From NCBI GenBank assembly GCA_964549165.1, contig CAZJUH010000001.1, positions 863-64,862 on the forward strand: a DNA stretch of 64,000 nt. The letters run 5' to 3'. Below the pieces are notes generated by a model. It ran no database searches. It worked only from the letters and a program-made list of their open reading frames with translations, and was not told where the DNA came from. Shown here one piece after another: positions 6,934 to 38,040 of this stretch (the first letter of the stretch is position 1; each line of letters starts with the position of its first letter). The position numbers and the translations under genes were made by a program. Source of the stretch: an uncultured Gammaproteobacteria bacterium (GTDB lineage Bacteria; Patescibacteriota; Microgenomatia; UBA12405).

Positions 6934-7692
6934 TCATTTTTTTCTAATCGCCCCTTTAAATCTTTTTATCTCTGTCAGCCTTATTCCTCCATATCTTCCG
7001 ACCAGCACATTAATTATTACTACAATTAAAATAACTATTTCTGCCCTTTTTAGCACCATTTCTTCAATTCCCTCTACCCCCATTATCATCGCCCCCACTG
7101 CCGCCAGCACTAGTGTTCCCGTCGTCAGGCTTACCGCCTCTTTTTTACTTTTAATCAGCTGGGTTCTGGCAAATTCTTCGGTTAAAAGTATCATAAACAG
7201 GATTGGGAAAATAGAAATTTTACTCACATCAACCATTTTAATATAAGAAGCTAGAATCATCGCCCCAAAAGTCCCCATACTGACAAAGAGCAGCGTAATT
7301 GATCTGGCCGGCCAAAAATGTAATTTTAATTTTTTAACCAAAAGATTACTCAGTAATGTAATTGCCAGTATTACGACAAACAGTATCAGCCCACTTCCTA
7401 CCCCCGTGGCCAGCAGAGCCACTGCCATCATGGTTGGCATAAAAATTCCATAACCGGAAAACCCGATCACATAGTGAATTACTGAAACGAGAGTTGCCAC
7501 CAGCGGTAGAAGCAGTAGTAAGGCCACCGTATTTTCCGGCACCCCTCTACTCACTGCTTCTGAGATTAAATAGCTGATTCCATTCCAAAACTTAAAAACA
7601 ACCCTTCCGCCTGTCTCCACTCCTTCCTGGGCATTCACTGCTCCCACATTTATAAAAAGCCACGCCAAAAATAAAAGGGCAGTTTTTCTCAT
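6934..7692 (-). CDS. Signal-peptide-bearing 7-TM membrane protein, first gene of the ATP-grasp cluster (7TM module of 7TM/ATP-grasp/protease systems)
   Basis: 252 aa. Signal peptide (FLAWLFINVGAVNAQE), a ~40-aa extracytoplasmic segment, then about 7 hydrophobic helices. Co-directional with and immediately upstream of the three ATP-grasp genes. Confidence 0.5.
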   Translation of the reverse strand: MRKTALLFLAWLFINVGAVNAQEGVETGGRVVFKFWNGISYLISEAVSRGVPENTVALLLLLPLVATLVSVIHYVIGFSGYGIFMPTMMAVALLATGVGSGLILFVVILAITLLSNLLVKKLKLHFWPARSITLLFVSMGTFGAMILASYIKMVDVSKISIFPILFMILLTEEFARTQLIKSKKEAVSLTTGTLVLAAVGAMIMGVEGIEEMVLKRAEIVILIVVIINVLVGRYGGIRLTEIKRFKGAIRKK

Positions 7693-7717: not shown

Positions 7718-7776
7718 TGTAGATTGATAATTGAAGATTGTAGATTGTAGATTGTCCGCCAGAGGCGGAAAGATTG
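7718..7776. repeat. Heptad (AGATTGN)n array fused to a CCGCCAGAGGCGG hairpin (intergenic, between the 7TM gene and the pilin array)
   Basis: ttgtagattgataattgaagattgtagattgtagattgtCCGCCagaGGCGGaaagattg. Related heptad arrays lie at 19527-19557, 23984-24009, 24992-25034, 25222-25248, 27341-27375, 27487-27520, 29071-29100, 30364-30392, 37307-37340, 39709-39745, 45676-45710, 46657-46677, 54921-54955 and 59521-59544. CDS-embedded relatives lie at 3361-3400, 6488-6511 and 44801-44836. Confidence 0.8.
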
Positions 7777-7838
7777 TTTTCGTGGCGTATTATAACACCC
7801 TTTTATCCTAGTTTATTGTATAATTTGTTTATTAAAAT

Positions 7839-8162
7839 ATGAATAAATTTTTACTGGCTGAAGTCAATATAAGTAGCACCCCCTTAGGTACTGGTAAAAA
7901 TCTCGGGAATGTCTACAAAGATCCCGCCACTTTAGTTACTTTGATAGTCAGAAATAGCCTAACTGTCGCCGGAATTATTCTATTGGTTCTCATAATCGCC
8001 GGTGGTTTTATGATGATTTCTAGTGCTGGTTCCGGAGATCAAAAAAAAGCCGCCTCGGCTAGCGCCATGATTACCGATGCCGCCATTGGCTTCTTGGTAA
8101 TTTTTCTTAGTTACTTTATAATTCAAATCATAGAAGTTATTACCGGATTAACTATTTTATAA
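7839..8162 (+). CDS. TrbC/VirB2-like T4SS pilin-family small membrane protein (paralog 1 of 6)
   Basis: 107 aa. Two hydrophobic helices flank a short charged loop (AGGFMMISSAGSGDQKKAAS ... AIGFLVIFL). The same architecture and motif recur in the next five genes. Confidence 0.5.
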   Translation: MNKFLLAEVNISSTPLGTGKNLGNVYKDPATLVTLIVRNSLTVAGIILLVLIIAGGFMMISSAGSGDQKKAASASAMITDAAIGFLVIFLSYFIIQIIEVITGLTIL

Positions 8163-8165
8163 ATA

Positions 8166-8498
8166 ATGATTGGCATTTTTGGCACTATCACCAACCCCAC
8201 CAATTACGGCACTGCCGGTGACAAGGGCCAGGGACTTTTCACCTTTTTAAGCAACATTTTTAAATTTGCCGCTGTCGCTGGTGGTCTTTACATGATTGTT
8301 CAAATTATTCTAGCTGGCTTTGAATACATCAGTGCCTCAGGTGATACCAAAAAAACCGAAGCCGCTTGGGCCAAAATTTGGCAAAGTATTCTCGGTCTTG
8401 TCATTATTTCTTCTGCTTTTATTATTGCTGGTATCGTTGGTCGCTTCACTGGTATTGATATTCTCAATCCTGTTATAAAAGGCCCCGGTCAACCATAA
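8166..8498 (+). CDS. TrbC/VirB2-like pilin-family paralog 2
   Basis: 110 aa. Motif ILAGFEYISASGDTKKTEAAWAKIWQSILGLVII. Tightly packed with its neighbours (gaps of 1-4 nt). Confidence 0.5.
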   Translation: MIGIFGTITNPTNYGTAGDKGQGLFTFLSNIFKFAAVAGGLYMIVQIILAGFEYISASGDTKKTEAAWAKIWQSILGLVIISSAFIIAGIVGRFTGIDILNPVIKGPGQP

Positions 8499-8499
8499 T

Positions 8500-8841
8500 A
8501 TGAAATTAATTGCCTACACGCTCACAGGTCCCGGTAAAAATCCCACCGGTGGGGTCGAAGCCACCACCATGCTGGAAAAGCTCGCCAGCAATCTAATTGG
8601 CATTCTTACTATTGTTGCTGTCCTCTTTTTTGTCATTCAAATTATTTTTGCTGGTTATAGTTTCATCTCTTCCGGTGGCGACGAAAAAATGATGGAGACT
8701 AGCCGTAAAAAACTTACCAATGGTATTCTTGGTTTAGTTATCGTTATTCTCGCTGTTGGGATTGGCTCACTTATCGCCAAGCTTCTGGGACTTGAAAATA
8801 TTTTTAGTCTCAACGAAATGTTTATTAAAATGGGTTTATAA
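8500..8841 (+). CDS. TrbC/VirB2-like pilin-family paralog 3
   Basis: 113 aa. Motif IFAGYSFISSGGDEKMMETSRKKLTNGILGLVIVIL. Confidence 0.5.
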   Translation: MKLIAYTLTGPGKNPTGGVEATTMLEKLASNLIGILTIVAVLFFVIQIIFAGYSFISSGGDEKMMETSRKKLTNGILGLVIVILAVGIGSLIAKLLGLENIFSLNEMFIKMGL

Positions 8842-8853
8842 AATTAAAAAACT

Positions 8854-9177
8854 ATGCCAATATGCAATCCACTCTTAAAAAATTGTAACAACGTTACTGA
8901 CCCCTTAGGTTACACTAATAACGTTCTCCAGTCGGCATTTTCCATCTTGTTTGTTATTGGTATTATCAATTTTATTTGGAATTTTATGATGGGTGCTTAT
9001 AGTTTAATCAGTCAAGGGGGAGAGAAAGAAAAGGTAGAAACTGCCAAACATAAATTCACTAATGCTTTTCTTGGCCTCGTACTCATGTTTGTCATCTTTG
9101 CCATTCTCAAGCTGGTTGGATATATTACCGGTATCAAGGGTCTTGATACTCTCCAGCTAAGCTGGCCTACCCTTTAA
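8854..9177 (+). CDS. TrbC/VirB2-like pilin-family paralog 4
   Basis: 107 aa. Motif MMGAYSLISQGGEKEKVETAKHKFTNAFLGLVLMFVIF. Confidence 0.5.
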   Translation: MPICNPLLKNCNNVTDPLGYTNNVLQSAFSILFVIGIINFIWNFMMGAYSLISQGGEKEKVETAKHKFTNAFLGLVLMFVIFAILKLVGYITGIKGLDTLQLSWPTL

Positions 9178-9230
9178 AATAATCCATTTCCCTGTTAAAC
9201 TTTATTAATTTATTAAAAATTTAAAAAAAT

Positions 9231-9602
9231 ATGTCTTCAATCAAAAACAAGCTTCAATTTGCCCTCTTAGCCATTCCCGCCTTTGCCGCAGAGACAATTG
9301 ATCTCGCTCCAAAAGATAATTTTGCCGGTTTAGCTGATTTAAGTTTTAGTGGTATTATTTCCGGAGCCGTCTCCCTAATTCTTTTAGTGGTCGCTCTAGT
9401 TTTCTTTTTTATCCTTATCACAGGCGGTTTAAAATGGGTTATGTCCGGTGGTGACCAAAAAAATGTCGAGGCGGCTCGCAATCAAATCACCAACGCTCTT
9501 ATTGGCCTGGCCATTGTCTTTGCTACTTTCGCCATTATGAAATTAATTGAAACCCTTTTTGGCATCACCATCCTCAGTAATCTTACTATCAAGCCTTTTT
9601 AA
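9231..9602 (+). CDS. TrbC/VirB2-like pilin-family paralog 5 (with cleavable signal peptide)
   Basis: 123 aa. Signal peptide LLAIPAFAAE, then LKWVMSGGDQKNVEAARNQITNALIGLAIVFATF. A rho-independent terminator follows. Confidence 0.5.
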   Translation: MSSIKNKLQFALLAIPAFAAETIDLAPKDNFAGLADLSFSGIISGAVSLILLVVALVFFFILITGGLKWVMSGGDQKNVEAARNQITNALIGLAIVFATFAIMKLIETLFGITILSNLTIKPF

Positions 9603-9625
9603 GAAAATTCGAATTAAATCCCAAA

Positions 9626-9653
9626 CCCCCCGAAATAACATCGGGGGGTTTTT
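9626..9653 (+). terminator. Rho-independent terminator after the fifth pilin paralog
   Basis: Stem CCCCCCGA, loop aataaca, stem TCGGGGGG, followed by TTTTT. Confidence 0.7.
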
Positions 9654-9669
9654 AAGTTATAATTAACTC

Positions 9670-10092
9670 ATGAAATCTATTTTCACTTTTTTTCTTTGTC
9701 TCGCCATAGCTTCTTGCATCGGCGTATCCATTCTGTCTTCTCCTGTTTTTGCCCAAACAACCAAGCCCTGGACTGGTCGCTGTGTCCAGACTTTCAACGT
9801 TAACGGAAAAATTATTGATGATGTTGCCACTATTCAGGGCTTTGAATGTCTTTTTTACAATGTTCTCCAGGTTATTGTCACCATCGCTGGTCTAGCTTTT
9901 CTCTTTATGTTTATCAGCGGTGGCTATAAATATCTCTTTAGCGGTAGTGAACCAAAGGCGGTCGCCGCCGCCTCTTCTGCCATCACCAGTGCTTTTATCG
10001 GTCTCATTGGTGTAATCGCTTCTTGGCTTATTATAAAATTAATTCAGGATTTCACCGGCATCAACGTTACCATATTTAAAATTCCCGGCTAA
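9670..10092 (+). CDS. TrbC/VirB2-like pilin-family paralog 6 (signal peptide, extra Cys-containing N-domain)
   Basis: 140 aa. Signal peptide, then FISGGYKYLFSGSEPKAVAAASSAITSAFIGLIGVIASWLII. Confidence 0.45.
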   Translation: MKSIFTFFLCLAIASCIGVSILSSPVFAQTTKPWTGRCVQTFNVNGKIIDDVATIQGFECLFYNVLQVIVTIAGLAFLFMFISGGYKYLFSGSEPKAVAAASSAITSAFIGLIGVIASWLIIKLIQDFTGINVTIFKIPG

Positions 10093-10095
10093 ATA

Positions 10096-11541
10096 GTGAA
10101 AAAAAATAGCTTATTATTATTCTTTTGTTTTTTCTTTTTATCTGTCACCCCTTCTCGTGCCTTCGATCTTCTCAATTTTCTTTTTCCCTCAGTTCAAATG
10201 GAGAACAGTACCCGCTCCGCTCCCGATCCTGCATTAGCGCCAGAAGTTCCGAGCAACAACACCTATTCCAATACCCTAAAAAACGACATCATTATCTGTA
10301 GTGGTAATGGCGCCGCTGGTAATAGTTGGTCAAAAGAGGACCACAAAACTACGGTAACTAAGGTAGATTCGAATGGCAATCCTTATACAGAAAATCTGTA
10401 TCTAGATTACAATGCCGAGAACCTAGGTGGAGAAATTGATTTAAAAAACCTATCTAACGAATATTATCGTAATTTTCAATCTTTTTTTGCTCGTGGCAGC
10501 ATTAAGTGTACCGAAGAAAAGGCAAAAAATAGTTTTCTTTCTCTTGAAATGAATGGCACCAGTGCTTCTCTACGTTCTTTGCCCACCAGCCAAATTAATT
10601 ATTATCGCAGTCTATTTTTAACTGAAGCCGCCCTGTCTCTAAATAACAGTGATCAATTAGATACCGTTACACAGGATTACCAAATCGCCTGGGACTGTCA
10701 GGGCACCTGTATCGAAATGTCTCAAGATAAATCAAAATTAGCTTCTTCCTGCCGTCCTGTCTATCTTAGTGAAATTATTTTCGGTCTCCAAAACGAAGCC
10801 CTTTATTACCGAAATCCCACCTCAGAACCAGAATCTTTTCCCTCGGCGCTCCTCACTCCAATTTTAAGCCATTATAGCGGTAGCTGTGGCACTTATGGTT
10901 GTTATTCAACCAGGTCTAAAGGCAAAAGTTTTGTTCCCCTTGCTAAAGAGGACTATCTTCTTTTTTACAAACAACTAAATTATATTCCCAAAGGAAACGT
11001 CAATAGTCGTGTTACCGTTACCAACTATAAAGGTTTTGATATTAACGGAGATCGTCCTATTGATCCCGTCGAGACAACCGATGATCGTACTTTACCAAAC
11101 GCCGCCGCTGCCTATTCTCCTCACTCCACCACCCTAAGTTTTGTTAATCCAAGCCTTCAAAAACCACTTGAAAATACCGATATGTGTCAAAACAGTGAGG
11201 TCAGCCATTTGACCTCTCGAGATAAGCCTGAATTTAATAATATTCCCACTTTCGTTGAGGGAATAATCGCATTTGTCGAAGCAGCTTTTGATTTTAGTAA
11301 AAGTGTCCCCATTCCCGTCAGTACCACCTACGATAAAAAAATTGTTGATAATGTGAAAGTAAGTGAACAAGCTTTTTTCAACATGATTCCTTCCGAATCT
11401 CTGGAAAAGAAAAAATTATTAGAAGAAAGTTTTTCCAGTAAAACTCCTTCTAACGACGATGCCAATGTTGTTGATCCTGGATACCGTTCTGATCTCCTTT
11501 ATCAAGAAATGCGTTCCCTGCTTCGCCCCTCATCTTGGTAA
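10096..11541 (+). CDS. Secreted Cys-containing protein of unknown function (T4SS-associated candidate: minor pilin or adhesin)
   Basis: 481 aa. Signal peptide (LLLFFCFFFLSVTPSRAFD) and no further TM helix. Sits between the pilin array and the polytopic membrane protein. Confidence 0.45.
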   Translation: MKKNSLLLFFCFFFLSVTPSRAFDLLNFLFPSVQMENSTRSAPDPALAPEVPSNNTYSNTLKNDIIICSGNGAAGNSWSKEDHKTTVTKVDSNGNPYTENLYLDYNAENLGGEIDLKNLSNEYYRNFQSFFARGSIKCTEEKAKNSFLSLEMNGTSASLRSLPTSQINYYRSLFLTEAALSLNNSDQLDTVTQDYQIAWDCQGTCIEMSQDKSKLASSCRPVYLSEIIFGLQNEALYYRNPTSEPESFPSALLTPILSHYSGSCGTYGCYSTRSKGKSFVPLAKEDYLLFYKQLNYIPKGNVNSRVTVTNYKGFDINGDRPIDPVETTDDRTLPNAAAAYSPHSTTLSFVNPSLQKPLENTDMCQNSEVSHLTSRDKPEFNNIPTFVEGIIAFVEAAFDFSKSVPIPVSTTYDKKIVDNVKVSEQAFFNMIPSESLEKKKLLEESFSSKTPSNDDANVVDPGYRSDLLYQEMRSLLRPSSW

Positions 11542-11560
11542 TATTTTGCTACAATAAATT

Positions 11561-13132
11561 ATGGCCAATAATTTTCTAAAGAAAATTTTATTTTTAACCC
11601 TCTTCTTTTCTTTGATAATCCTCCCCTCCAAGGCCTTTGCTCAAGAAGCCCCCACCACCTCAACTAATCTTTTTTCTCAAAAACAAAAGGCCATTAAAAA
11701 TAATACCGGTCTCGAATCCTGGACCAACGAAGCCATGAGCAGCAACATGGTTTCCCTCTTTGTTGGTATAAATGGCACCGTCCCCGAGGAAGTACTCAAT
11801 GACGAAGCCAACTTCGACACTACCTATGTTCCTGGAGGAGCTATAGGTCAACTCAATAATGCTATTGTTGCTCTTCATCAGCCACCGGCCTCAGGAATTG
11901 AATATCTTGCCCAAATGAAAGATGCTTTTCTTGGCAAACCTGCTTATGCCCAGAATGGCACTCTTCAAAAACTGCAGTTCATTTTACCCCTTTGGCGCAT
12001 CTTTAGAAATGTAGTTTACGTTCTTTCTACTATTATGTTTATTGTCATTGGGATGATGATTATGCTCCGAGTAAAAGTTAGTCCCCAAGCTGTCATTACC
12101 GTTCAAAGCGCTATTCCTCGAATTATTACCGTTTTGATTTTGGTTACTTTTTCTTATGCCATTGCCGGACTAGTCTTAGATCTTTGTAACTTTCTCCAGG
12201 CTATTACTATTTCTTTACTTTTTTCCGTCCAAAATAAAGGACTTTCCGAGCAATTGTTTGAAAATACAAATTGGTATTCTACCTTTCTTACCAATCTTGG
12301 AGAATGGATAAAAAATATTTTTAGAACAGATCCAGATTTCGGTTATTTATCGCTTGTCAACATGAACTCAAGAACTTTCAGAAACTTGTCTGCAAGAATC
12401 TCGCCAAATGTCGTTACGGGTAATTATTTAGGGGTATTCATTGGAAGAGTTACTGGTGTTGGTGCCCTACTGGGTGGTGTTGGTGGTGTCTTATTACCCT
12501 TATTAATTTCCATTATGAAATTCTTCTGGTTATTTAAATTGTTTTTTGGTTTACTAAAGTGCTACGCCACTTTGCTTTTAAAGATAATCCTTGCCCCTCT
12601 CGAAATTGCCATGGGAGCTTTTCCAAACTCTAAAATGAATTTTTCTTCTTGGATTACTGATTTTGCCGCCAATGCTCTTGTTTTCCCTGTGGTTGCCATA
12701 TTTTTAGTTATAGTCAACGTCATTATCGACGTTTTTATCGCTGGGACAAGGGGTACCAGCCAAGCATTTTGGATGCCCGGCTTAATCGACGCCACCAGTC
12801 TATTTAAAACTAATCAAGATCAAGCCTATGTTGCCATTGCCACTGGCCTCGGTCTCATCGCCCTCTCTCTTTTAAGTAAACTACCGGAAATGATCCCTGT
12901 TATGATTAAGGAAATGAAAGGTCCCGATTTTGGTAAAGCCATCGGCGAAAGTCTTAAGGGAATAGGTAACAATCCTGTCACTGGATTCGCCAAATCCATT
13001 GGCGGTGAAGCCCTTGAAAAAAGGTTTATTAATTCAGAATTTGGAAAAAGCCTAACTAAAGCGACAACTAGACCGGCTTCTGTAAAAAAAGGTACTGCAA
13101 CTGAACCCACCCAACCAACAACCAAACAGTAA
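11561..13132 (+). CDS. Polytopic membrane protein, VirB6/TrbL-like candidate
   Basis: 523 aa. Signal peptide, a ~100-aa exported segment, then at least 6 hydrophobic helices and a hydrophilic C-terminal tail. Position after the pilins is typical for VirB6. No specific motif was recognised. Confidence 0.4.
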   Translation: MANNFLKKILFLTLFFSLIILPSKAFAQEAPTTSTNLFSQKQKAIKNNTGLESWTNEAMSSNMVSLFVGINGTVPEEVLNDEANFDTTYVPGGAIGQLNNAIVALHQPPASGIEYLAQMKDAFLGKPAYAQNGTLQKLQFILPLWRIFRNVVYVLSTIMFIVIGMMIMLRVKVSPQAVITVQSAIPRIITVLILVTFSYAIAGLVLDLCNFLQAITISLLFSVQNKGLSEQLFENTNWYSTFLTNLGEWIKNIFRTDPDFGYLSLVNMNSRTFRNLSARISPNVVTGNYLGVFIGRVTGVGALLGGVGGVLLPLLISIMKFFWLFKLFFGLLKCYATLLLKIILAPLEIAMGAFPNSKMNFSSWITDFAANALVFPVVAIFLVIVNVIIDVFIAGTRGTSQAFWMPGLIDATSLFKTNQDQAYVAIATGLGLIALSLLSKLPEMIPVMIKEMKGPDFGKAIGESLKGIGNNPVTGFAKSIGGEALEKRFINSEFGKSLTKATTRPASVKKGTATEPTQPTTKQ

Positions 13133-13169: not shown

Positions 13170-15656
13170 TTATTTTGTCACCGCTTTTATTACTTGTCTG
13201 GCTACCTCTGCCACAAAATCCTCTTCTTCTGTCTCCATCTCTCTCTTCAGAATCTTTCTTGAGGCAACTGCATCAGAAATACCCTTCTTATATGCCTCAT
13301 ATATATTATTCCACTGGCTTCTTTTCAAGAAACTAGCCTTTATCTCTACACCCTTGTCATCCCTCAACACCATCTCCCTTACCAAAATTGTTCCCAATTG
13401 CCTAAACTGTGTAACACTCATACCAAGTTCTGGACGTGACGCAGATAAATGAGCAATACCCTCAACCACAATTTCTCTTAATCTAAATTCTTTCCTATAT
13501 GCCAAAATCTTTTTCTCGACACTATAAGCCTTCATTGCCTTCTCATACGCGTCCATGGTCGCCCTTGAAGAATTTTTTGGTGGTCTGTCAGGTTTCACAG
13601 GCATTGACATAATTCCTGATCTTGACATGTCAACCGACCCGTCTTGGGACAACAAAACTATGTCTAATATCTCGTTTCCACTACTATCTCTCAACACTGG
13701 TCCAGGTATATCAATAGTAATAGCACTAGAACCGGATCCCAATACCTCTTTTCCGGGAGAAGACCCTCTTTTTGCATCTACAATCACACTTGGATACTTT
13801 GCAACTTTATTTATTTGATCATACAAGCCCTTCCAGAAAGGGTTAGACAAAACTGCTTTCAAATCAACACCCTCCTCCATTACCGTCTGTTGATATGGAA
13901 CCGTCTTTTTCATTAATATTGCCGTATAGTAATAATATTCACTACCTTTTGGTTCTCTCATTTTGTCAAAATCAATTTCCTTACAATGAATCGGACCAAT
14001 AGCATCCTCGTCACTAATTGCCCTCAACCAAGTTGGAGTCAAACTTACCAGTGATTTCATTGCTCTTCTCGAACCGATTGTTTTTCCTTTTGATTTACGA
14101 TCATATATATTTGCTTCAGTCAAAATCAACTCTGCCAAATCATTGTGGCCAGCAAAAGCTGCATTCATAGTTGCATCTTCACCCGTTGCCACAATCAGTT
14201 TATCTGCTAATTCAATACCCTTACTTAGCAAAGACTTATCACCGGCCATTTGCGACACTAAATATTTCCTAACAATCTGTTTACGAACATCATCTGAGTC
14301 ATATTGATAATTACTTTTTTCATTCCTAAAAAACATTGACCCCTCGTTTAACGAATCACTACTTACCTTACCAAATTTTTTTGAAAGATATTCCGTAGGA
14401 TCATCTATTCCGTTCTTTTCCCAAAAACTTGTATCCGCCAACAATTCATTTATAAAAGTTGCATTGCTTGGATTTAAGATATTATCCACTATTTTCTTAT
14501 AACTACCACCATAATTTATGTCCATTAATTCGTCCCAAAAATGTCCAACCTCCATCCCATTCGCCCCATCTCTCAAGAAAAAAGTCATATCGAACATCGA
14601 TAATTCCGACTTATCATCATACGCCCTCTGTAAGGCGTTTGGAATAGAACCCTGTATCTTTGAATCCATGAAACCACCTGCTCCATACATTAAAGGATAA
14701 AGATAATGTAAATGCAGTCTAGCGTTTATTTCACGCTTAACCTCAGGAGACACTATTTCACTTGAAGACAGGTTGATCAACATTGTACTTTCCCTTGAAA
14801 CCAACAAATCTCCAAATCTCAACCCAGAGTCTTCAATATAATCCAAAGCACCTCTAGCTATTTTCAACTGTGATTTCTCATCTTCCGGTATTACCACTCT
14901 TTCAGCGCTCTCTGCCAACTCTTTTGCTCCTCCAGCAATTGACGATAAATAAGTTATTAACATTTTTGCTTCTGATTTTGGTTTACTCTCCCAGTCGTCT
15001 TCTTCAGGCCATTCCCTTATTACCACCCTTACTATCTCCGCAACTTTTTGGCTGTAATAGGCTGGATCATTATCCCTTAAGTTTCCCCCCAATTCCATCT
15101 GAATCATATCCAACACATTAATCAATTTAGAATCGGTTACCCCCGAATCCAACAAACACTGACCTAAACCCCTTAGTTCTGTTTTTAGACCTAAAAAGTT
15201 ATCAACTTTATCCGCAGTAGTCTCCTTGTCCTTCATTAACTCTTTAAATGTTTTATCAACCTTAAAACCGTTTCCCCACATCGAACCAATAGCTACTCCG
15301 TCAACTAAATCTAAATACATTTGCCTCAATCTAAGGTATTCGGACCTAACCATCTCATTAGGAAACTCTCTTCCTAACTCATCTTTTGACATCTCAGGCC
15401 CGCCGGCTGTTCGCTTCAACTCCTCAAAATTTGTAAACTTGAAAAGATGGTCTGGAGAGGTTTCTGGAACAAATAAATCATTTACCAAGCTTCTCTTCTC
15501 ATCAACATCAACATTTGACACAATACCTCGCACCCCTTCAGATATCTTTAATGCCGCCGGAGTTGGATTTAATTCAGTATAATCAATCGGTCCCTTAAGC
15601 TCACGATTTTTATACAAAACAGCTTCTTTCAACACCACTCTCTCGTTCATGCCCAA
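13170..15656 (-). CDS. Large soluble hypothetical protein (828 aa), function unknown
   Basis: Long uninterrupted ORF with normal composition and no TM helix or P-loop. Divergent from the GC-rich gene at 15738. Confidence 0.5.
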   Translation of the reverse strand: MGMNERVVLKEAVLYKNRELKGPIDYTELNPTPAALKISEGVRGIVSNVDVDEKRSLVNDLFVPETSPDHLFKFTNFEELKRTAGGPEMSKDELGREFPNEMVRSEYLRLRQMYLDLVDGVAIGSMWGNGFKVDKTFKELMKDKETTADKVDNFLGLKTELRGLGQCLLDSGVTDSKLINVLDMIQMELGGNLRDNDPAYYSQKVAEIVRVVIREWPEEDDWESKPKSEAKMLITYLSSIAGGAKELAESAERVVIPEDEKSQLKIARGALDYIEDSGLRFGDLLVSRESTMLINLSSSEIVSPEVKREINARLHLHYLYPLMYGAGGFMDSKIQGSIPNALQRAYDDKSELSMFDMTFFLRDGANGMEVGHFWDELMDINYGGSYKKIVDNILNPSNATFINELLADTSFWEKNGIDDPTEYLSKKFGKVSSDSLNEGSMFFRNEKSNYQYDSDDVRKQIVRKYLVSQMAGDKSLLSKGIELADKLIVATGEDATMNAAFAGHNDLAELILTEANIYDRKSKGKTIGSRRAMKSLVSLTPTWLRAISDEDAIGPIHCKEIDFDKMREPKGSEYYYYTAILMKKTVPYQQTVMEEGVDLKAVLSNPFWKGLYDQINKVAKYPSVIVDAKRGSSPGKEVLGSGSSAITIDIPGPVLRDSSGNEILDIVLLSQDGSVDMSRSGIMSMPVKPDRPPKNSSRATMDAYEKAMKAYSVEKKILAYRKEFRLREIVVEGIAHLSASRPELGMSVTQFRQLGTILVREMVLRDDKGVEIKASFLKRSQWNNIYEAYKKGISDAVASRKILKREMETEEEDFVAEVARQVIKAVTK

Positions 15657-30398: not shown

Positions 30399-30758
30399 TT
30401 ATTCTTCTTCAAATATCAGCCTTTGACTTTCTGTCGCGATCTTATTTTCTCTCATCCAGTTGTATATTTCTTGTTTAATTATTTTCTCATCCACCTTTTC
30501 ACTTTTCTTAATCAAAAGAGTATTTGGCTCTGTGTAGCGCTCTACAACATAGCCAACTCCCTTATAAGGTAACTTTTCCCATAATGGATACTCAACACTG
30601 ATTTGAGAGGAAATAGTTGGGCTTGGAGAGATAATTTGGAGCACTTCCTTTTGTTCCCACTTTACATTTCTATATTTAAATTTTACTATCCCCATTGCTG
30701 TCGCAATCACCAGCAGTATGATTATTAATCGGTATTTATATATATCTTTAAAATTCAT
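30399..30758 (-). CDS. Small membrane-anchored protein (T4SS-cluster accessory candidate)
   Basis: 119 aa with an N-terminal TM helix (LIIILLVIATAMGIV). Overlaps the upstream gene by 4 nt and is last in the minus-strand operon with virB4. Confidence 0.4.
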   Translation of the reverse strand: MNFKDIYKYRLIIILLVIATAMGIVKFKYRNVKWEQKEVLQIISPSPTISSQISVEYPLWEKLPYKGVGYVVERYTEPNTLLIKKSEKVDEKIIKQEIYNWMRENKIATESQRLIFEEE

Positions 30759-31681
30759 TTATCTGCTTTTAATAATACTGGAATATTAATCGGTTTATTT
30801 TCTTTTGGAGAAAAAGTATTCCCTTCGAGTATAAAATAAGGCTCGACACTTTCTCTTTTGTTATCGTAAATTTGTACTAGTTGTATTTGATTTGCATTTA
30901 CCTTACCAATTTCATCATAAAGATCATTAACCCCCGCCCTGTAATTATTTATCGGACTTTTTATTGCCTCATCTAGTGTCATTATTTGCCAGTAATCATC
31001 AGTTGTTTTAATTTCTGGTTTTAAATAAATCATTATTTTAACTAAATTTTCCTGACCATCAAAATAAGCCTTTATCGCTTCGCCATGAAAAGTAGTCAAT
31101 CTCATTCCGTCAACCAAATAATCGCCACTAATTTCCAAAAACTGAGCCTCGTTTTGAGTTGTTTCAATCAAATATGGCTGATTGTATTTTCTGTAGCTGT
31201 TGTTTGTCCATTCGACTTCCAAAGCTGTTTCTTTATTTAAATCACTGGCAATTTTTCGCAGCTTGTTTTTTAATTCACCAATTTCCCATTTTGTCGTCAC
31301 GGGCACCTTATCAAGATTGCTTGGCATATTTGTATACTGAATATAGTTTAGCTCTTTTACTACATAGCCATTTTGCTTGTTAATGCCAAAATATTTTATT
31401 ATTTCTCCTTCTATTTTTTCATCAATAATCTTTCTTTTTATGGTTATTTTTTTAAATTCTTCCGGATAATTTTGCTTTATATCTGAATTCCAATTTACTG
31501 CCCCAATTTTTTTTAAGGTTTCAGGAAAAGTCGTCTGCTTATTATCTACCCCCAAAGTTGGAGCTATTCCGGGCACTATCGGTGTCTTGGTTGGTTCTTT
31601 TTTGTCTTTAGGCCATATCAACCAAATAAACAATCCTAAAAATATTATTCCTAATATTATTAATTTATTTTTTTTAATCAT
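30755..31681 (-). CDS. Membrane-anchored extracytoplasmic protein (VirB8-like topology; function unknown)
   Basis: 308 aa. N-terminal TM helix (LIILGIIFLGLFIWLIW), then a soluble domain. Lies immediately downstream of the M23 hydrolase gene. Confidence 0.4.
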   Translation of the reverse strand: MIKKNKLIILGIIFLGLFIWLIWPKDKKEPTKTPIVPGIAPTLGVDNKQTTFPETLKKIGAVNWNSDIKQNYPEEFKKITIKRKIIDEKIEGEIIKYFGINKQNGYVVKELNYIQYTNMPSNLDKVPVTTKWEIGELKNKLRKIASDLNKETALEVEWTNNSYRKYNQPYLIETTQNEAQFLEISGDYLVDGMRLTTFHGEAIKAYFDGQENLVKIMIYLKPEIKTTDDYWQIMTLDEAIKSPINNYRAGVNDLYDEIGKVNANQIQLVQIYDNKRESVEPYFILEGNTFSPKENKPINIPVLLKADK

Positions 31682-31694: not shown

Positions 31695-34600
31695 CTATCG
31701 ACATAGGCTATTGAATTCGTCCTGACTAATTCCAAAATAAGGACCTGCAATATCCCAGTCTATGTTTGCTCCTACCACTTCATAATGTAAATGATTTCCG
31801 CTTGAATACCCAGTATTGTCAACGATTCCAATTTGCTGACCGGCTTGTACTACTTCTCCGTCACCAACTCTGTATCCTCCAGCCGGCATGTGGGCATAGC
31901 GGATAAAAAAATCGTCCCCACCATAACTACTGTGAATGTCGATATAAAATCCATATCCATTTCCTTCACCAAGTCTGGCAATACCAGAAAAAGTTGAGAA
32001 AATTGGTGTGCCAAAATCTGCTCCCCAGTCCATTGCCCAAATTCCATTATGAGAATAAGAACCAAAAGGACACTGTGTTCTGGTGCCGGCAACGGGCGCC
32101 CCGCCGGGATTCATTGTTGATGGTCCACCACCTCCACTTGTACTACAAAGATAGGTTTGACCATCGTCTCCTATAATTTCCTTTGTTGGTCCGGTCAGTG
32201 AAAAAGGCGCCCCTGCCTGTTCACAGTTTTGCCCACCCTTTTCCACATAAATATCCTTTGGTAGGGGTACACCCGCAATCCACGTCCAGGTTTCTTTCAT
32301 TCCGTCATTGGGATTATTCAAATATTTTCTTCCAGTATTTCCGCTTTGTGTCTGTCCGGCGTCTGGATCACATTGTCCCGTTAAAAAATTAGTGGCCCAG
32401 GCCAGCCAGTAATCGCCTCCAATTTTTGGTTCATTAATACACGCTGACGCCGGATCCAGTCTTAAAAACACTTTAATTTGAGCATCAAAATTATTTTCAA
32501 TTGAACTATCGTTAATTCCAAAATCCTGAACCTTTCCATTATCATAATTACTTCCGGCGGTCTCATGCATCCAAACCCAAAGAGCGTACAGAGGATTAAT
32601 TCCGGCACAAAGAGACCTGTTGACTACGTCGTTATAACATTCCTCAACATGACTTTTACCAGCCTGCCAATCTTTTACAACCCTAAAATAATTACTCTTA
32701 CTTATTAAACCCGGCACCTCATTTTCTGGCGCATTCATATCACAGTTAATCTCTCCTTCCGGTAATCCTCCCGGACCACTTCCTCTTTTTAGAATACAAC
32801 CGCTCAAATCTTTTGGAGGAACAATCGATGATACCTGTTGGTGCATTAGCATGTTATACAAAAAACTTCCCGCAAAAAAAACAATAAATATTGGTAATAA
32901 AAAAGATCCAAAATTAACTAATCCCAGCAGTGCTGGTATTCCAACTAAAAAAGTTCCAATATCAAAAACAAACTGAGCCACCCCCCCAACAAACTTTCCC
33001 AGTCCCAAATCTTCGGCAACAAATTTTTTGATTTTGTTTAGACTCGTTCCTAAAATTTTTTCTAAAAATTTTTTAGCCGCATCTATTATAGGTTTAGCTA
33101 CTACTATTACCAAAGCCACAACGGCAATTATTTGTCCCACCACCGGTAGGGCTTGAAAAGCAGCTACTACTCCAGCGAGTGCTCCTCCACTTGCTGCGCC
33201 CCCAGCTGCCGTTACCGCACCTTTACCCGAGATAGATTTTAGAATTAATCCCACCCCTTTTACTGTTCCCTCTTTGGCAATTACTGCGGCTGAGTTTTTA
33301 ACAAAAGCTGCTGTTGCTTGACCTCCGATTTTTTCGATTATTTTTAAACCAGCTTTTTGGACTCCTATTTTTGACAATACATTTCCCGGAAAAACACTTA
33401 TCTTTTGCCAAACACCAACCATTTTTTGAGTTCCGTTCATTAATTTCAACATTTCCGGACTATTTTTAAAAATAGTTGCCATTTTTTCCGTCACTCTAAT
33501 TTCTTTTAATTTTGGCAATTTATCACTCCCTATCTTTTCTCGCAGTCTGTTGTATTTTTGAATTAGATTATTAAACTTTTTCGGTGCCATTACCACGTTA
33601 CTAGCCATAAATCTGGCCTCATCTATCGATCTTTCTATTTCTCCGTCACTTTTATTTTGGTTTTCGTTTTTAACAAAATTATATGTATCGCTCCTATTTT
33701 CCTCAGCCATGGCACTAGCTGGATCATTTATAAAGGCATTAACCACCGTGACATATTCTTTAATTAATTTTTCATTTTTTACTCCACTTTTCCTTAACTC
33801 TTCGCCTATTTCCTTTCCAAGTTCCAGTCTTCGGTAGTTTACAATTGCTTTTATATTTTCGTTTTTATAATTATCGGTTGCTTTTTCTGCTTCGGCAACT
33901 ATTACCCGGGCCTCTTTCATGTTAGACAGATCTTCGGGTACCCGAAGACGATCTCCTTCTTTCCAGGCGATTAATATTTCGTTTTTAATTTTTTCTTTAA
34001 TTTCATTATTAATTGGCAACTTTTCTTCAACCAGTTTTTCGTAGGTAGCTTTAGCAACTTCTTCGGCCCTTTCTTTTACTTTAATTTCTGCTCTAATCTC
34101 TTCAACTTTTTGAATTAAATCATCAACCTTTTCCGAATCTTTAATTCTTTTTTTTAGTTCTTTTTTTAATTCTTTTGTTTTATAATCTTGATCATTTTTA
34201 AGACTATTCTCTTCGAAAATTTCAAACAATCTTTCTTTCTCCTTTTGTTCATCCGAGGTTAAAACTTCAACGATTTTCTCTTTTTTAATTTCTTCCACCT
34301 TGTCAATTCGTGTCCGTCCATCTTCTTCAGCCAGTCTATTCATTGCCAGGTCTTCAACTATCTTTGTTTTGGTTTTAAAATTGAGCCTATTGAGTTTATT
34401 GGCATTTCTTAAAGCAATTTCCTTTTGAACCTCAATAAATCGCTTAACATCTTTTTGACCCGTTCTTTGATAAATTTCTTTTTCTATTTTTTCTCTTTCG
34501 TTATTACTTTTAGCTTTTTCATAATCTTCAAGTAGTTCTTTCAAATCCTGCTTGTTCAAAGATTTTGTTTCTAGTTTTTTTTCTCCAATTTCTAGCTCTT

Positions 34601-34811
34601 CTATTTTTAGTTCTTTTATTTCTGGCGGCAAATCCCTTAGGGTTTTAATTGTTTTTTTTAGATTTCCCGGATCAAAGTTACTTAATATCTTAAGTTTTTC
34701 AAAGACACCTCGACAAGACCAAAACAGGTCATGTTCATCGTTTAATTTTTTTTTGCCAAGCCCTTCAAGTGACACAATTAATTCCGTAATATTATTGGGC
34801 GATTGACTCAT
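31695..34811 (-). CDS. T4SS-associated giant cell-wall hydrolase: coiled-coil N-region, TM segment cluster, C-terminal M23/LytM peptidase domain
   Basis: 1038 aa. Long K/E-rich coiled-coil region, a Gly/Ala-rich hydrophobic block (about 3 TM helices), and a Cys-containing central domain. The C-terminus carries M23 signatures (HMPAGGYRVGDGEVVQAGQQIG...GYSSGNHLHYEV). The architecture resembles PrgK/TcpG-type conjugation hydrolases. Confidence 0.7.
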   Translation of the reverse strand: MSQSPNNITELIVSLEGLGKKKLNDEHDLFWSCRGVFEKLKILSNFDPGNLKKTIKTLRDLPPEIKELKIEELEIGEKKLETKSLNKQDLKELLEDYEKAKSNNEREKIEKEIYQRTGQKDVKRFIEVQKEIALRNANKLNRLNFKTKTKIVEDLAMNRLAEEDGRTRIDKVEEIKKEKIVEVLTSDEQKEKERLFEIFEENSLKNDQDYKTKELKKELKKRIKDSEKVDDLIQKVEEIRAEIKVKERAEEVAKATYEKLVEEKLPINNEIKEKIKNEILIAWKEGDRLRVPEDLSNMKEARVIVAEAEKATDNYKNENIKAIVNYRRLELGKEIGEELRKSGVKNEKLIKEYVTVVNAFINDPASAMAEENRSDTYNFVKNENQNKSDGEIERSIDEARFMASNVVMAPKKFNNLIQKYNRLREKIGSDKLPKLKEIRVTEKMATIFKNSPEMLKLMNGTQKMVGVWQKISVFPGNVLSKIGVQKAGLKIIEKIGGQATAAFVKNSAAVIAKEGTVKGVGLILKSISGKGAVTAAGGAASGGALAGVVAAFQALPVVGQIIAVVALVIVVAKPIIDAAKKFLEKILGTSLNKIKKFVAEDLGLGKFVGGVAQFVFDIGTFLVGIPALLGLVNFGSFLLPIFIVFFAGSFLYNMLMHQQVSSIVPPKDLSGCILKRGSGPGGLPEGEINCDMNAPENEVPGLISKSNYFRVVKDWQAGKSHVEECYNDVVNRSLCAGINPLYALWVWMHETAGSNYDNGKVQDFGINDSSIENNFDAQIKVFLRLDPASACINEPKIGGDYWLAWATNFLTGQCDPDAGQTQSGNTGRKYLNNPNDGMKETWTWIAGVPLPKDIYVEKGGQNCEQAGAPFSLTGPTKEIIGDDGQTYLCSTSGGGGPSTMNPGGAPVAGTRTQCPFGSYSHNGIWAMDWGADFGTPIFSTFSGIARLGEGNGYGFYIDIHSSYGGDDFFIRYAHMPAGGYRVGDGEVVQAGQQIGIVDNTGYSSGNHLHYEVVGANIDWDIAGPYFGISQDEFNSLCR

Positions 34812-37338: not shown

Positions 37339-38040
37339 TTACTGTTTCCTCGTTACCGCTGCGGCGGTGTAATCAATGTTTTGTAATCTTTGGTTGTTAG
37401 CGAGATCTTCATTGTAAGTTCTGTAAAATAAATCAATTAATTCTTTGGTATTTAAGGCTTTAATTTCCAGTCCCAGTCTCGAAAAAAGTCTGACGATATG
37501 ATCTTCTTTTGGTTTAAGGGCCGCCTTAGCCTTTTCTAAAATATATTCTTTTGAGTATGGCAGTTCTGCCTTCTTTTTAATTGGATTTAACACCGCAAAA
37601 GCTTGTTTTTGGGCATTTTTTATTCCGAGTTCAAGGCTGGAAAAAGGAACCACCACATAAAAGGTTTTCGACAAAACATCATTTCTTTTTACCGTTTCTT
37701 CCACGAACTTTTTGTATGAAGTAATCCTGTCCTTTAATTTTTGATTTACTTGTTTATTTTTTGCCTCTTCCAAATTGTTTAAGTAATTTCCTACGTCTTT
37801 GGTGGTTGAATTAATGACAATTTGAATCGTAAAATTTAACGAATTTAAAATCCCTCCATAGGCAAAGACTAGAGCTCCCTGTTCTCTTTCTGATAATAAA
37901 TCAAAATTTACTGAGGAGACCTGAAGTACCATTGAGGCTGAGCCGTCTTTTAGAAGCACTATTCCATCAACGATATCTTCAATTGGCAAATTGTCTTGAG
38001 TGCTTCCTTTTATGGCATTTTTTAGAGGATCATTTGACAT
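37339..38040 (-). CDS. Hypothetical soluble protein immediately upstream of virB4
   Basis: 233 aa with no TM helix. Co-oriented with virB4 and separated from it by a 50-nt spacer containing a heptad repeat array. Confidence 0.45.
   Translation of the reverse strand: MSNDPLKNAIKGSTQDNLPIEDIVDGIVLLKDGSASMVLQVSSVNFDLLSEREQGALVFAYGGILNSLNFTIQIVINSTTKDVGNYLNNLEEAKNKQVNQKLKDRITSYKKFVEETVKRNDVLSKTFYVVVPFSSLELGIKNAQKQAFAVLNPIKKKAELPYSKEYILEKAKAALKPKEDHIVRLFSRLGLEIKALNTKELIDLFYRTYNEDLANNQRLQNIDYTAAAVTRKQ

Follow-up and report, generated by a model that had tools for sequence, protein, structure and literature searches.

The locus considered here adds a case to a type already known, the chromosomal T4SSs of ultrasmall Patescibacteria, which have no relaxase, lie near dnaA and contain arrays of 2-11 VirB2-like genes (Wang 2023; Quinonero-Coronel 2025). 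In S. epibionticum, six PF18895 genes (SEML1_0014-0019) were each scored by Tn-seq as giving a growth defect and then as essential (PMC10633639 Table S1); polar effects of transposon insertions could be a partial cause of this essentiality. The region analyzed here, in a 64-kb stretch of DNA (the window), is probably the pilin-and-platform module of a chromosomal, relaxase-less, monoderm-type T4SS of Candidatus Shapirobacteria (Microgenomatia, Patescibacteria). The interpretation as a T4SS, taken whole, is already in print (PMC10633639, PMC12102498, PMC12857230). What is new is that the six small pilin genes make up a fixed, ancient and ordered set rather than as interchangeable variants.

The block consists of eight ORFs, all on the + strand and all where an earlier note on this DNA had placed them, with intergenic gaps of 3, 1, 12, 53, 67, 3 and 19 nt. 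The six small ORFs (107-140 aa) are called identically by NCBI (on a 191,792-bp contig) and are spaced 1-67 nt apart over five internal gaps, a narrower range than the 1-90 nt of the earlier note, whose ORFs, coordinates and strand are otherwise upheld. A 481-aa signal-peptide protein and then a 523-aa polytopic membrane protein follow on the 3' side.

The six small proteins share 25-40% identity in pairwise comparison, and an HMM made from any five retrieves the sixth (E = 2e-15 to 3e-21) with zero scores at E<=10 among the other 195 window ORFs of at least 50 aa, which bears out their description as tandem paralogs. Each has two hydrophobic helices (Kyte-Doolittle scan) and, between them, a loop with the consensus ISSGGDxKKVEAAxxKITNAxIGL, in agreement with the two-helix architecture and charged-loop motif already noticed. 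On a heuristic reading, two of the six have predicted signal peptides, as had been claimed (clear in pilin 6, MKSIFTFFLCLAIASCIGVSILSSPVFA/QTT; shorter in pilin 5, ..LQFALLAIPAFA/AE), and pilins 1-4 have none. PF18895 (T4SS_pilin; Pfam cut-off 26.6 bits) is the sole family matched by all six. Pilins 2-6 score above the cut-off (34.8, 30.8, 28.6, 31.2 and 39.4 bits, respectively); pilin 1 falls under it at 21.9 bits, and is counted in the family because the HMM of the other five recovers it (E = 2.2e-15). On these profile matches the six genes are classed as T4SS-type, PF18895-family pilin paralogs, as the earlier note had supposed. (The profile-HMM searches proposed there as a check gave PF18895 and, in the VirB4 block, PF12666 (PrgI) matches, and no PF04956 match at E<=1 for any of the six pilins.) Comparison with six alphaproteobacterial VirB2 proteins by hhalign gave P = 0.088 (control families, 0.15-0.3), and a profile search of PDB sequences gave no match for the pilins; judged by sequence and profile, they have no significant tie to canonical VirB2.

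The window was compared with 58 other loci (~59 Shapirobacteria species, 354 pilins), and nearly every array has six genes in one order. Of the 57 arrays with a defined upstream boundary, 54 consist of six pilin ORFs, another packs its six domains into five ORFs, and two (L066 and L069) reach eight genes by carrying three copies of pilin 5, the only pilin triplicated in them; copy number and order are thus fixed in 55/57. The pilin at array position k has window pilin k as its best match in 346/348 cases, and the nearest neighbor in another genome occupies the same array position for all 354 pilins. Identity is 47-60% within groups and ~31% between them, a distinct ectodomain signature is conserved in every group, and dN/dS is 0.05-0.29 (rough values, because dS is near saturation). 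The make-up of the L079 array differs, and close relatives have diverged more rapidly in pilins 3 and 4 than in the other four. The six pilins are accordingly ancient orthologous groups that have retained a single order and one copy each under purifying selection. Fixed order and same-position nearest relatives favor six non-redundant subunits over antigenic variation.

The groups are individually recognizable. Pilin 1 (7839-8162, 107 aa) lacks an N-terminal signal peptide and has a position-1 orthologue in 58/58 other loci. Positional orthology is equally complete (58/58) for pilin 2 (8166-8498, 110 aa), whose group consensus is NPT.Y...G.GLF.FLSNIFK at the N-terminus and ILNP.IYGP at the C-terminus, for pilin 3 (8500-8841, 113 aa) and for pilin 6 (9670-10092, 140 aa), in which a Cys pair is kept in the mature N-terminal region (W.G.CV...DVATIQG.ECLF). 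Pilin 4 (8854-9177, 107 aa; orthology 56/58) is the least conserved (46.8% within-group identity) and its group keeps N-terminal NP.L.N and C-terminal WPTL. Pilin 5 (9231-9602, 123 aa) is the most conserved (60.4%) and is flanked by a conserved ~50-nt gap on its 5' side and a conserved terminator on its 3' side. It is the best candidate for a major subunit; the others would be initiator, adaptor or minor subunits.

One protein is always encoded between pilin 6 and the VirB6-like gene (10096-11541, + strand; here the slot protein), and it is there, not in the pilins, that the locus varies: between the window and locus L045, slot proteins are 24.5% identical and pilins 67-80%. The 481-aa form of the window's slot protein starts at GTG, and only from this start is there a signal-peptide-like N-terminus; NCBI calls a 447-aa protein from an internal ATG, and most homologues are ~481 aa. 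It ends in the motif LLRPSSW and has no recognizable domain or known fold. BLAST ties together 50 of 53 slot proteins, nearly all with signal-peptide-like N-termini and many with a C-terminal LxPxxW, and among the 51 that were scanned for domains there are SpoIID (8), SLT (7), VanY (4) and GH5 (2) modules. The window's slot protein is the core module of a hypervariable, signal-peptide-bearing mosaic family of putatively secreted proteins. Its location next to VirB6 parallels that of VirB5 and IcmX. The 523-aa protein that follows (11561-13132, + strand) combines a hydrophobic segment at the N-terminus with a helical ectodomain and at least five long transmembrane helices, and its C-terminal tail is disordered; it is VirB6/DotA-like by fold and not by sequence, so that its VirB6-like designation stands in that sense. 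Convergent with it lies the gene of a conserved 828-aa protein of unknown function (13170..15656, - strand; no match in Pfam, PHROGs or PDB sequences), a homologue of which adjoins the VirB6-like gene in many loci and, in L079, is located between the VirB6-like gene and PrgI-VirB4; this protein may be associated with the T4SS.

The VirB4 block, on the - strand, begins with a 304-aa PrgI/VirB3-like membrane protein (38068..38982; PF12666 28.8 bits, cut-off 27). A 233-aa protein (37339..38040) is placed by position only, which equals that of SEML1_0009 (TrsD-like) of S. epibionticum; it has no Pfam match and no significant BLASTP match to the VirB4 N-terminus. The 820-aa VirB4 ATPase (34826-37288; PF19044, PF12846 and PF03135; PDB 4ag5 (VirB4), E = 3.7e-48) is next, followed by a 1038-aa membrane protein (31695..34811) with a C-terminal M23 peptidase domain (PF01551; PDB M23 peptidases to E = 2.9e-8), which matches SEML1_0007 in position and is assigned as the block's cell-wall hydrolase, in the role of VirB1. 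Two small bitopic proteins of 308 and 119 aa (30399..31681; no Pfam match) end the operon beside dnaN. A distance of 21.7 kb separates VirB4 from the end of the pilin block (about 20 kb in the earlier note, which had allied the two), and that the blocks belong together is supported on three counts. The gene order of the VirB4 block is that of SEML1_0004-0010. The 119-aa protein has homologues in one block or the other, according to species (between the slot and VirB6-like genes in L014, L017, L019 and L021), which links them, and in L079 the array, slot and VirB6-like genes are only 3.6 kb from PrgI-u233-VirB4. The T4SS of this Shapirobacteria lineage is encoded in two separate loci flanking dnaA.

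The earlier note had offered both diversification and a heteromeric pilus; its observation is confirmed and its interpretation partly supported. Subunits of a heteromeric pilus, in ancient ordered orthologous groups, are much the better fit, whereas diversification through fast-evolving interchangeable copies is at odds with fixed order, fixed copy number and purifying selection. That the six are interchangeable variants of one pilin, for antigenic variation or differing host strains, has been suggested (PMC12102498), with precedents cited for Bartonella and Anaplasma, and could draw on the low identity of the paralogs, the extra copies of pilin 5 and divergent L079 make-up in a few arrays, and the faster change of pilins 3 and 4. 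It is nevertheless improbable in the face of strict positional orthology, orthologues that resemble each other more than paralogs do, exposed N- and C-terminal signatures kept within each group, dN/dS below 0.3, the scoring of all six as essential in S. epibionticum, and variability that resides in the slot protein. It is rather unlikely, on the other hand, that the hairpins build no extended pilus and remain at the membrane or close to it, as parts of the translocation channel or of a short stalk in a monoderm T4SS, like the pilin-like conjugal-transfer proteins of Mycoplasma ICEs. Weak, sub-cut-off matches of all six to NF045849 (Mbov_0395 pilin-like conjugal transfer protein, Mycoplasma ICEs), the general absence of pili from Gram-positive T4SSs (PMC12102498, PMC12857230), the four pilins without signal peptides and the lack of a VirB5-like tip protein in the gene set all point that way; six distinct conserved subunits with extracellular signatures seem excessive for a simple channel lining. 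(As a short stalk and a long filament are not separable here, this reading overlaps the preferred one, the chief difference being how long the structure would be.)

A pilus for DNA transfer between cells, encoded by part of a conjugative element, is very improbable. VirB4, PrgI and VirB6-like proteins do have conjugative ancestry, VirD4-like coupling proteins are found elsewhere in most Patescibacteria genomes (PMC12102498), and the DNA at hand is only 64 kb of a genome. Yet no relaxase or coupling-protein domain was found in 43 of the larger ORFs of the window, as the earlier note had remarked, and no integrase was found in it; relaxases are rare in the phylum (PMC12102498), and S. epibionticum can dispense with its coupling-protein homologue but not with its T4SS. 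The locus is core-chromosomal and not a mobile element: it keeps its synteny with housekeeping genes, FtsH and dnaA among them, in ~60 species, GC content is uniform without anomaly of base composition, and no relaxase or coupling protein was found in the ORFs scanned. In S. epibionticum growth requires the T4SS but not the competence gene comEC (PMC12857230), an argument against ComEC-dependent nucleotide scavenging as the reason for which the system is essential; the T4SS itself may still import DNA. Scarcely credible, finally, is an assignment of the small proteins to unrelated two-helix membrane proteins (holins or bacteriocin-immunity proteins) and of the 523-aa protein to a transporter family, outcomes the earlier note had named as fatal to its own view. 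Short two-helix proteins match many families weakly, and pilin 3 has one PHROGs 'membrane protein' match (E = 0.0017); PF18895, however, is found in all six, searches of Pfam, NCBIfam and PHROGs turned up no holin or immunity family, none of 32 members of the 523-aa family has a transporter domain, and the neighborhood is tied to VirB4. These negatives and the VirB6-like fold effectively refute it.

The preferred explanation, a heteromeric assembly, probably holds as a whole and would work as follows. Pilins would be inserted in the membrane as helical hairpins whose termini both face outward and whose Lys-rich SGGDxKK loop is cytoplasmic; the route of entry would be by cleavable signal peptides for pilins 5 and 6 and by N-tail translocation for pilins 1-4. 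Extracted pilins would stack at an oligomeric VirB6-like platform, with energy provided by the VirB4 ATPase encoded 21.7 kb off, and the product would be an extracellular filament or stalk of heteromeric make-up, to which each of the six proteins contributes a distinct, non-redundant function. The slot protein might be a species-specific distal or wall-acting partner, its copies in sister species often having peptidoglycan- or glycan-cleaving modules. The apparatus would serve host-cell contact or exchange rather than conjugation. To our knowledge, a filament has not yet been seen in any Patescibacterium.

Candidate expression signals are consistent with division of the block into two units. 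The divergent intergenic region 5' of pilin 1 contains tandem (T/A)AGATTG heptamers (7720..7776, + strand), broken up by the hairpin TCCGCCAGAGGCGGA (7755-7769); their number varies in close relatives (~17 in L001, ~5 in L045, ~2 in L002) and the more distant of 15 loci have none. An 18-nt motif, GTGGCGTATTATAACACC (7782..7799), is nearly invariant in 15/15 Shapirobacteria loci inspected, reads on the - strand as an extended -10 (TGTTATAAT), and is probably a promoter or operator of the divergent operons. The extended -10-like element TTGTATAAT (7816..7824, + strand), kept in position and sequence in related loci, probably drives the pilin 1-5 unit; it lies 14 nt 5' of the pilin 1 start codon (ATG), which leaves a very short leader, and the upstream windows inspected show nothing that resembles a Shine-Dalgarno sequence. 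Between pilins 5 and 6 lies an intrinsic-terminator-like hairpin, ACCCCCCGAAATAACATCGGGGGGT, with a T-run (9625..9653, + strand; -17.3 kcal/mol), which the consensus scan did not list. A hairpin of -10 kcal/mol or stronger with a T-run, at most 125 nt past pilin 5, is present in 57/59 loci (0-2/59 for any other pilin), and its stem sequence varies among species. Termination here would leave pilin 6 and the slot and VirB6-like proteins at lower expression than pilins 1-5. The promoter-like ATAACA-17-TATAAT (9635..9663, + strand), a consensus match only (10/12 positions), has a -10 hexamer that stops 6 nt 5' of the pilin 6 ATG and may start the pilin 6/slot/VirB6-like unit.

The six pilin ORFs of the array occupy positions 7839-8162, 8166-8498, 8500-8841, 8854-9177, 9231-9602 and 9670-10092 of the + strand (pilins 1 to 6, numbered by array position; 107-140 aa), and are followed on the same strand by an ORF of 481 aa that begins with GTG and has a signal-peptide-like N-terminus (10096-11541; the slot protein) and by the gene of a 523-aa polytopic membrane protein (11561-13132; the VirB6-like protein). 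Spacers along these eight ORFs, which the earlier note had located correctly, are 3, 1, 12, 53, 67, 3 and 19 nt, and the identical six pilin sequences are annotated as genes on a 191,792-bp NCBI contig. In a hydropathy scan and alignment, each pilin comprises two hydrophobic helices linked by a loop with the consensus ISSGGDxKKVEAAxxKITNAxIGL. Pairwise identity among the six is 25-40%; an HMM made from five of them recovers the sixth with E = 2e-15 to 3e-21 and finds no further match among the 201 window ORFs of at least 50 aa. PF18895 (T4SS_pilin) is the best Pfam match of all six proteins, and its gathering cut-off (26.6 bits) is exceeded by five, pilins 2-6 (34.8, 30.8, 28.6, 31.2 and 39.4 bits, respectively). 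Pilin 1, at 21.9 bits, lies under the cut-off but is still a clear paralog (leave-one-out E = 2.2e-15). NCBIfam yields sub-cut-off matches only, to the Mycoplasma ICE pilin-like family NF045849, and no match to the holin, bacteriocin-immunity or transporter families that the earlier note had named as contrary assignments was found in Pfam, NCBIfam or PHROGs.

The resemblance of these proteins to canonical VirB2/TrbC pilins (PF04956; Agrobacterium VirB2, F TraA) is one of architecture and of genetic company. Like the canonical proteins, which are ~100-140 aa long with two hydrophobic helices and a short basic loop, the window pilins have two transmembrane helices (of presumed in/out orientation) and a short basic loop within ~70-120 aa of mature protein, and are encoded with genes of the VirB4, VirB3 and VirB6 classes. 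Homology to VirB2 is another matter: the Pfam scan gives no pilin match to PF04956 at E<=1, the pilin profile finds nothing below E = 0.6 among PDB sequences and recovers no solved pilin, and hhalign against six bona fide alphaproteobacterial VirB2 places the pilins in register at P = 0.088, which is not significant and is barely better than control families. (The comparison set consists of six alphaproteobacterial virB operons; the VirB2 query used for it was 99.2% identical to annotated VirB2.) The window pilins also differ from canonical VirB2 in that a signal peptide is discerned, by heuristic reading, in only two of six (pilins 5 and 6), and in that there are six distinct subunits instead of one major pilin. 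What stands of the original description as TrbC/VirB2-like is thus membership in a pilin family, PF18895, and the two-helix architecture, but not PF04956 membership or profile homology. Since VirB2 homology is not demonstrable, the accurate label is 'PF18895 pilin-family protein with VirB2-like architecture' and not 'member of TrbC/VirB2'.

The array was compared across 80 loci from different species, chosen by relatives of the 523-aa protein, and an HMM made from the window's six pilins was run against their ORFs; in 57 of these loci the conserved divergent 7TM gene marks the upstream limit of the array. Exactly six pilin ORFs are present in 54 of the 57 bounded loci, six pilin domains are spread over five ORFs in one, and the remaining two (L066 and L069) have eight pilins, with pilin 5 triplicated. 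The pilin at position k has window pilin k as its best match in 346 of 348 cases, and in an all-against-all comparison the nearest neighbour from another genome occupies the same array position for every pilin (354/354). Identity is 47-60% within the six orthologous groups and ~31% between them, and each group carries a conserved extracellular signature of its own (for example, a Cys pair in group 6, NPT.Y..GLF in group 2 and NP.L.N...WPTL in group 4). Rough dN/dS values of the pilins are 0.05-0.29; identity of the VirB6-like protein within the same clade goes down to 32%. Strict positional orthology together with the level of within-group identity implies that the duplications are older than the radiation of the clade, and all six genes have been retained since, their order unchanged.

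A fixed set of this kind is the signature of non-redundant parts and not of an antigenic-variation cassette. Antigenic diversification had been one of the two options put forward for the six divergent copies, and it is disfavoured by the comparison across loci, in which number, order and positional orthology are almost always fixed. The survey of Quinonero-Coronel et al. (2025; PMC12102498) describes 441 VirB2-like arrays, each of 2-11 pilin genes, from 383 assemblies. They are commonest in Microgenomatia and Saccharimonadia, lie near dnaA and show ~25% within-array identity. The arrays are regarded there as variable, and adaptation to different hosts is suggested, whereas the Shapirobacteria array is a fixed six-group set, whose positional orthology argues against the host-variation suggestion. 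The non-redundant-parts reading agrees with Tn-seq scores in Southlakia epibionticum ML1 (Saccharimonadia), in which each of SEML1_0014-0019 was scored as causing a growth defect and then as essential (Wang et al. 2023; PMC10633639), with polar effects as a caveat. The sets of minor pilins in type IV pili, and those in the pseudopili of type II secretion, are comparable as a functional analogy only: they too are fixed tandem sets of divergent small-fold paralogs, each needed for assembly, but their fold is unrelated and their assembly machinery (class III signal peptide, PilD, PilB) is different.

Transcription signals would divide the locus after pilin 5. A GC-rich hairpin followed by a T-run lies 3' of that gene (9625-9653, + strand; -17.3 kcal/mol), and an equivalent hairpin of other sequence follows pilin 5 in 57 of 59 loci, as against 0-2 of 59 for the other pilins. 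(The hairpin was found by eye and by folding with controls; a consensus terminator scan did not list it.) An extended -10 element, TTGTATAAT, is found at 7816-7824, 14 nt 5' of pilin 1, and is conserved in related loci; a promoter-like site lies upstream of pilin 6. These signals suggest two transcription units, one of pilins 1-5 and one of pilin 6, slot protein and VirB6-like protein, with greater output probable from the first. Pilin 5 belongs to the most conserved group and has a signal peptide (read heuristically); its gene is flanked by the two longer spacers, and no other pilin is triplicated in the two bounded eight-gene arrays. We infer that it is a candidate for the major subunit. The upstream region has two further features. 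Heptamer repeats, (T/A)AGATTG, stand in tandem between the divergent 7TM gene and pilin 1 (7720-7776), with ~6 copies in the window and ~17, ~5 and ~2 in the related loci L001, L045 and L002, respectively, and are absent from more distant loci; they may be a variable-number repeat that alters the spacing of two divergent promoters. An 18-nt motif, GTGGCGTATTATAACACC (7782-7799, 5' of pilin 1), is almost invariant in 15 of 15 Shapirobacteria loci inspected, and may be an operator, because a -10 box by itself would require far less conservation.

Between pilin 6 and the VirB6-like gene there is always one large + strand ORF, of 240-1093 aa, and its product nearly always has a signal-peptide-like N-terminus. 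BLAST joins 50 of 53 of these slot proteins into one mosaic family, in which a C-terminal LxPxxW(Q) motif is frequent (LLRPSSW in the window copy). Pfam domains detected among 51 slot proteins are SpoIID (8), SLT (7), VanY (4) and GH5 cellulase (2), in architectures such as GH5 + core + SLT (L033), core + SLT (L026) and SpoIID + VanY (L014). SLT, SpoIID and VanY on the slot proteins of sister species, and the M23 hydrolase of the window's VirB4 block, constitute a likeness to VirB1 and to the wall hydrolases of Gram-positive T4SS (PrgK, CwlT, pIP501 TraG). The window's own slot protein differs from these in that it has no recognisable catalytic domain (neither SLT, PF01464, nor any other peptidoglycan-hydrolase domain in the Pfam scan) and in that its conserved core fits no known fold; Pfam, NCBIfam and PHROGs gave nothing useful for it. 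Between the window and locus L045 the pilins are 67-80% identical and the slot proteins 24.5%; it is therefore the slot protein, and not the pilins, that is the variable and probably host-facing element of the locus. A VirB5-like reading of the 481-aa protein was rejected, as it has no structural match to VirB5/TrwJ, IcmX or anything else in the PDB. The pilin 6 and slot genes share a reading frame, only TAA ATA standing before the GTG (10090-10098). A 621-aa 'pilin 6 + slot' fusion in a public assembly (P0170) at first resembled a Rosetta-stone link. It has W exactly where the stop should be and keeps the internal signal peptide; most likely it arose in gene calling, with TGA translated as Trp, and it was not counted as evidence.

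The 523-aa protein is polytopic, with at least five transmembrane helices, and is encoded with pilin and VirB4 genes. None of 32 members of its family has a Pfam match, PF04610 (VirB6/TrbL) included, and NCBIfam and PHROGs likewise gave nothing useful for the window's protein; a profile of the family finds nothing among PDB sequences, and hhalign against six VirB6 gives P = 0.12, not significant and barely better than control families. An AlphaFold model (32 homologues; pLDDT 71, pTM 0.57) is all-helical with five long transmembrane helices. In a Foldseek search of the PDB, TrwI/VirB6 chains of the R388 T4SS rank first, with a best E of 0.044 and none reaching 0.001, and the best structural matches of the model are TrwI and DotA, the two solved VirB6-class proteins. 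The model accordingly points to a fold similar to that of solved VirB6-class proteins. The VirB6-like assignment made from the DNA alone holds for the predicted fold and the helices, but not for sequence or profile homology. Almost every named homologue of the protein belongs to Candidatus Shapirobacteria or Woesebacteria (Microgenomatia, Patescibacteria/CPR). This fold-based candidate matters because the 2025 survey found VirB6 homologues 'scarce' in Microgenomatia by HMM and suspected extreme divergence (PMC12102498); it fills the gap reported there.

In the R388 VirB6-VirB5 stalk (TrwI/TrwJ; 7o3v, 8rt9, 8rtd) and the Legionella DotA-IcmX protochannel (9ngy) a VirB6-class protein pairs with a secreted partner, and in the window, too, a secreted protein is encoded beside the VirB6-like gene. 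The VirB6-like protein has no sequence or profile similarity to TrwI or DotA, and the secreted partner no structural match to VirB5 or IcmX; because structural similarity is lacking, the likening of the slot/VirB6-like pairing to VirB5-VirB6 and DotA-IcmX is an analogy only. The window's cell, unlike those of the R388 and Legionella systems, is a monoderm without an outer-membrane core complex; a possible pilus in a monoderm is highlighted in a review (PMC12857230).

The VirB4 block runs from 38982 down to 30399 on the - strand and ends beside dnaN and dnaA. It encodes, in order, a PrgI/VirB3-like protein (a PF12666 match, answering the PrgI-like search that had been proposed), a 233-aa protein (u233), VirB4 (E = 3.7e-48 against PDB 4ag5), a 1038-aa membrane protein with an M23 domain and two small bitopic proteins. 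For u233, Pfam, NCBIfam and PHROGs scans gave nothing useful bar one weak PHROGs match, to 'terminase large subunit' (E = 1.1e-4), which was set aside as chance; a TrsD-like reading, favoured by its position alone, was also dropped, BLASTP against the VirB4 N-terminus not being significant. In the related locus L079 the pilin array, slot and VirB6-like genes are 3.6 kb from PrgI-u233-VirB4, and in L014, L017, L019 and L021 a homologue of the 119-aa VirB4-operon protein (u119) lies between the slot and VirB6-like genes; the two arrangements tie the two halves of the window's system together.

The T4SS of S. epibionticum ML1 (SEML1_0004-0019; PMC10633639) has six tandem same-strand PF18895 pilin genes, as in the window, and likewise a VirB6-like polytopic protein. 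It also has, by dnaN/dnaA and in the same order as the window, PrgI, a small protein, VirB4, a large M23/M15 peptidase and further exported proteins. The window's VirB4 block follows the order SEML1_0010 to SEML1_0004, and in S. epibionticum the VirB6-like gene and the six PF18895 pilins come directly after. With the L079 adjacency and the u119 homologue, this gene order bears out the proposal that the pilin and VirB4 blocks belong together. A relaxase and a coupling protein are absent from the S. epibionticum cluster as they are at the window's locus, where the absence had been noticed from the sequence: no relaxase, coupling-protein or integrase domain was found in 43 of the window's larger ORFs. 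Tandem pilins are reported as essential in the relaxase-less, Gram-positive-like Saccharibacteria system (PMC10633639). The two systems differ in layout: S. epibionticum has a single cluster, whereas the pilin/VirB6-like half of the window is 21.7 kb from its VirB4 half; the VirB6-like gene encodes 1088 aa and diverges from the pilins in S. epibionticum, but encodes 523 aa and follows them in the window; and the window has the hypervariable secreted slot protein between pilins and VirB6-like gene.

As to mechanism, the pilins would be inserted as hairpins with the basic loop cytoplasmic, and would be extracted by the action of VirB4 and stacked on the VirB6-like platform. The product would be a heteromeric filament or stalk, and pilin 5 its major subunit; the slot protein would be a distal or wall-acting component, and the role of the whole would be contact or exchange with a host and not conjugation. 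The main rival is a short membrane-proximal channel in place of an extended pilus, which differs from this explanation only in degree. We regard it as possible, but rather doubtful, that the T4SS of Shapirobacteria forms an obligately heteromeric filament or stalk, in which six different VirB2-type subunits are assembled on a divergent VirB6-like base. A secreted protein of new fold, itself rapidly swapped, would cap or accompany this structure and in many species would carry wall-cutting enzymes aimed at the host cell. Perhaps the same holds for Patescibacteria more widely, because S. epibionticum also has six essential pilins. If true, the six-subunit assembly would be a T4SS surface structure unlike any solved system. 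A large part of bacterial diversity belongs to Patescibacteria, and their T4SS is, to our knowledge, the first shown to be essential for its own carrier. A fixed, ordered and ancient pilin set turns the question 'why so many pilins?' into a testable hypothesis, that of a six-component assembly, and the slot protein, whose wall-lytic modules are interchangeable, offers a concrete candidate for the component that makes the machine host-specific.

The interpretation in the earlier note was thus largely right, the antigenic-diversification option excepted, and the whole of it is already in print in PMC10633639, PMC12102498 and PMC12857230. What is new here, and was not found in the parts consulted of these three papers, is that positional orthology is strict across six groups, that a VirB6 candidate for Microgenomatia can be proposed from its fold, that an internal terminator is conserved and that the slot protein is modular and hypervariable. 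These results leave the category of the finding unchanged, because the object itself has already been described in the literature.

The window belongs to the core chromosome: its genes include dnaA, dnaN, yidC, ftsH and cell-envelope genes, and GC content is uniform. All 2-kb bins of 1-64000 have a negative GC skew (-0.05 to -0.41), so that the usual origin skew switch is not visible as a sign change at dnaA/dnaN (27.5-30.3 kb). An 828-aa protein encoded at 13170-15656 on the - strand is conserved beside the VirB6-like gene, and in L079 its gene is flanked by the VirB6-like gene and PrgI-VirB4. No library (Pfam and PHROGs among them) and no PDB sequence search gives a match for it; it shows no obvious transmembrane helix or P-loop, and may be an unrecognised T4SS-associated protein. 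In L026 (5261-11434) the platform gene is duplicated, VirB6-like genes of 552 and 522 aa standing on either side of the 828-aa homologue. The - strand at 3235-7692 encodes two ATP-grasp proteins of RimK type, an ATPgrasp_ST protein whose C-terminus is protease-like, and a membrane protein matching 7TM_transglut; in almost all related loci these genes likewise point away from the pilins. They are predicted to form a peptide-ligase system, which may modify the pilins or simply be syntenic with them. Just past the PrgI end of the T4SS block, two PIN-domain genes (39031-39614 and 41813-42506, - strand), each with a small ORF in front of it, resemble toxin-antitoxin pairs. A full-length and very strong DUF6909 match (510 bits) at 15738-17381 is found downstream of the locus in most related genomes. 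Many public MAGs with a Shapirobacteria-type locus (those of L003, L005, L008, L014 and others) are titled 'uncultured Gammaproteobacteria', 'Lactobacillales' or 'Candidatus Methanoperedens', and look like mislabelled bins or records.
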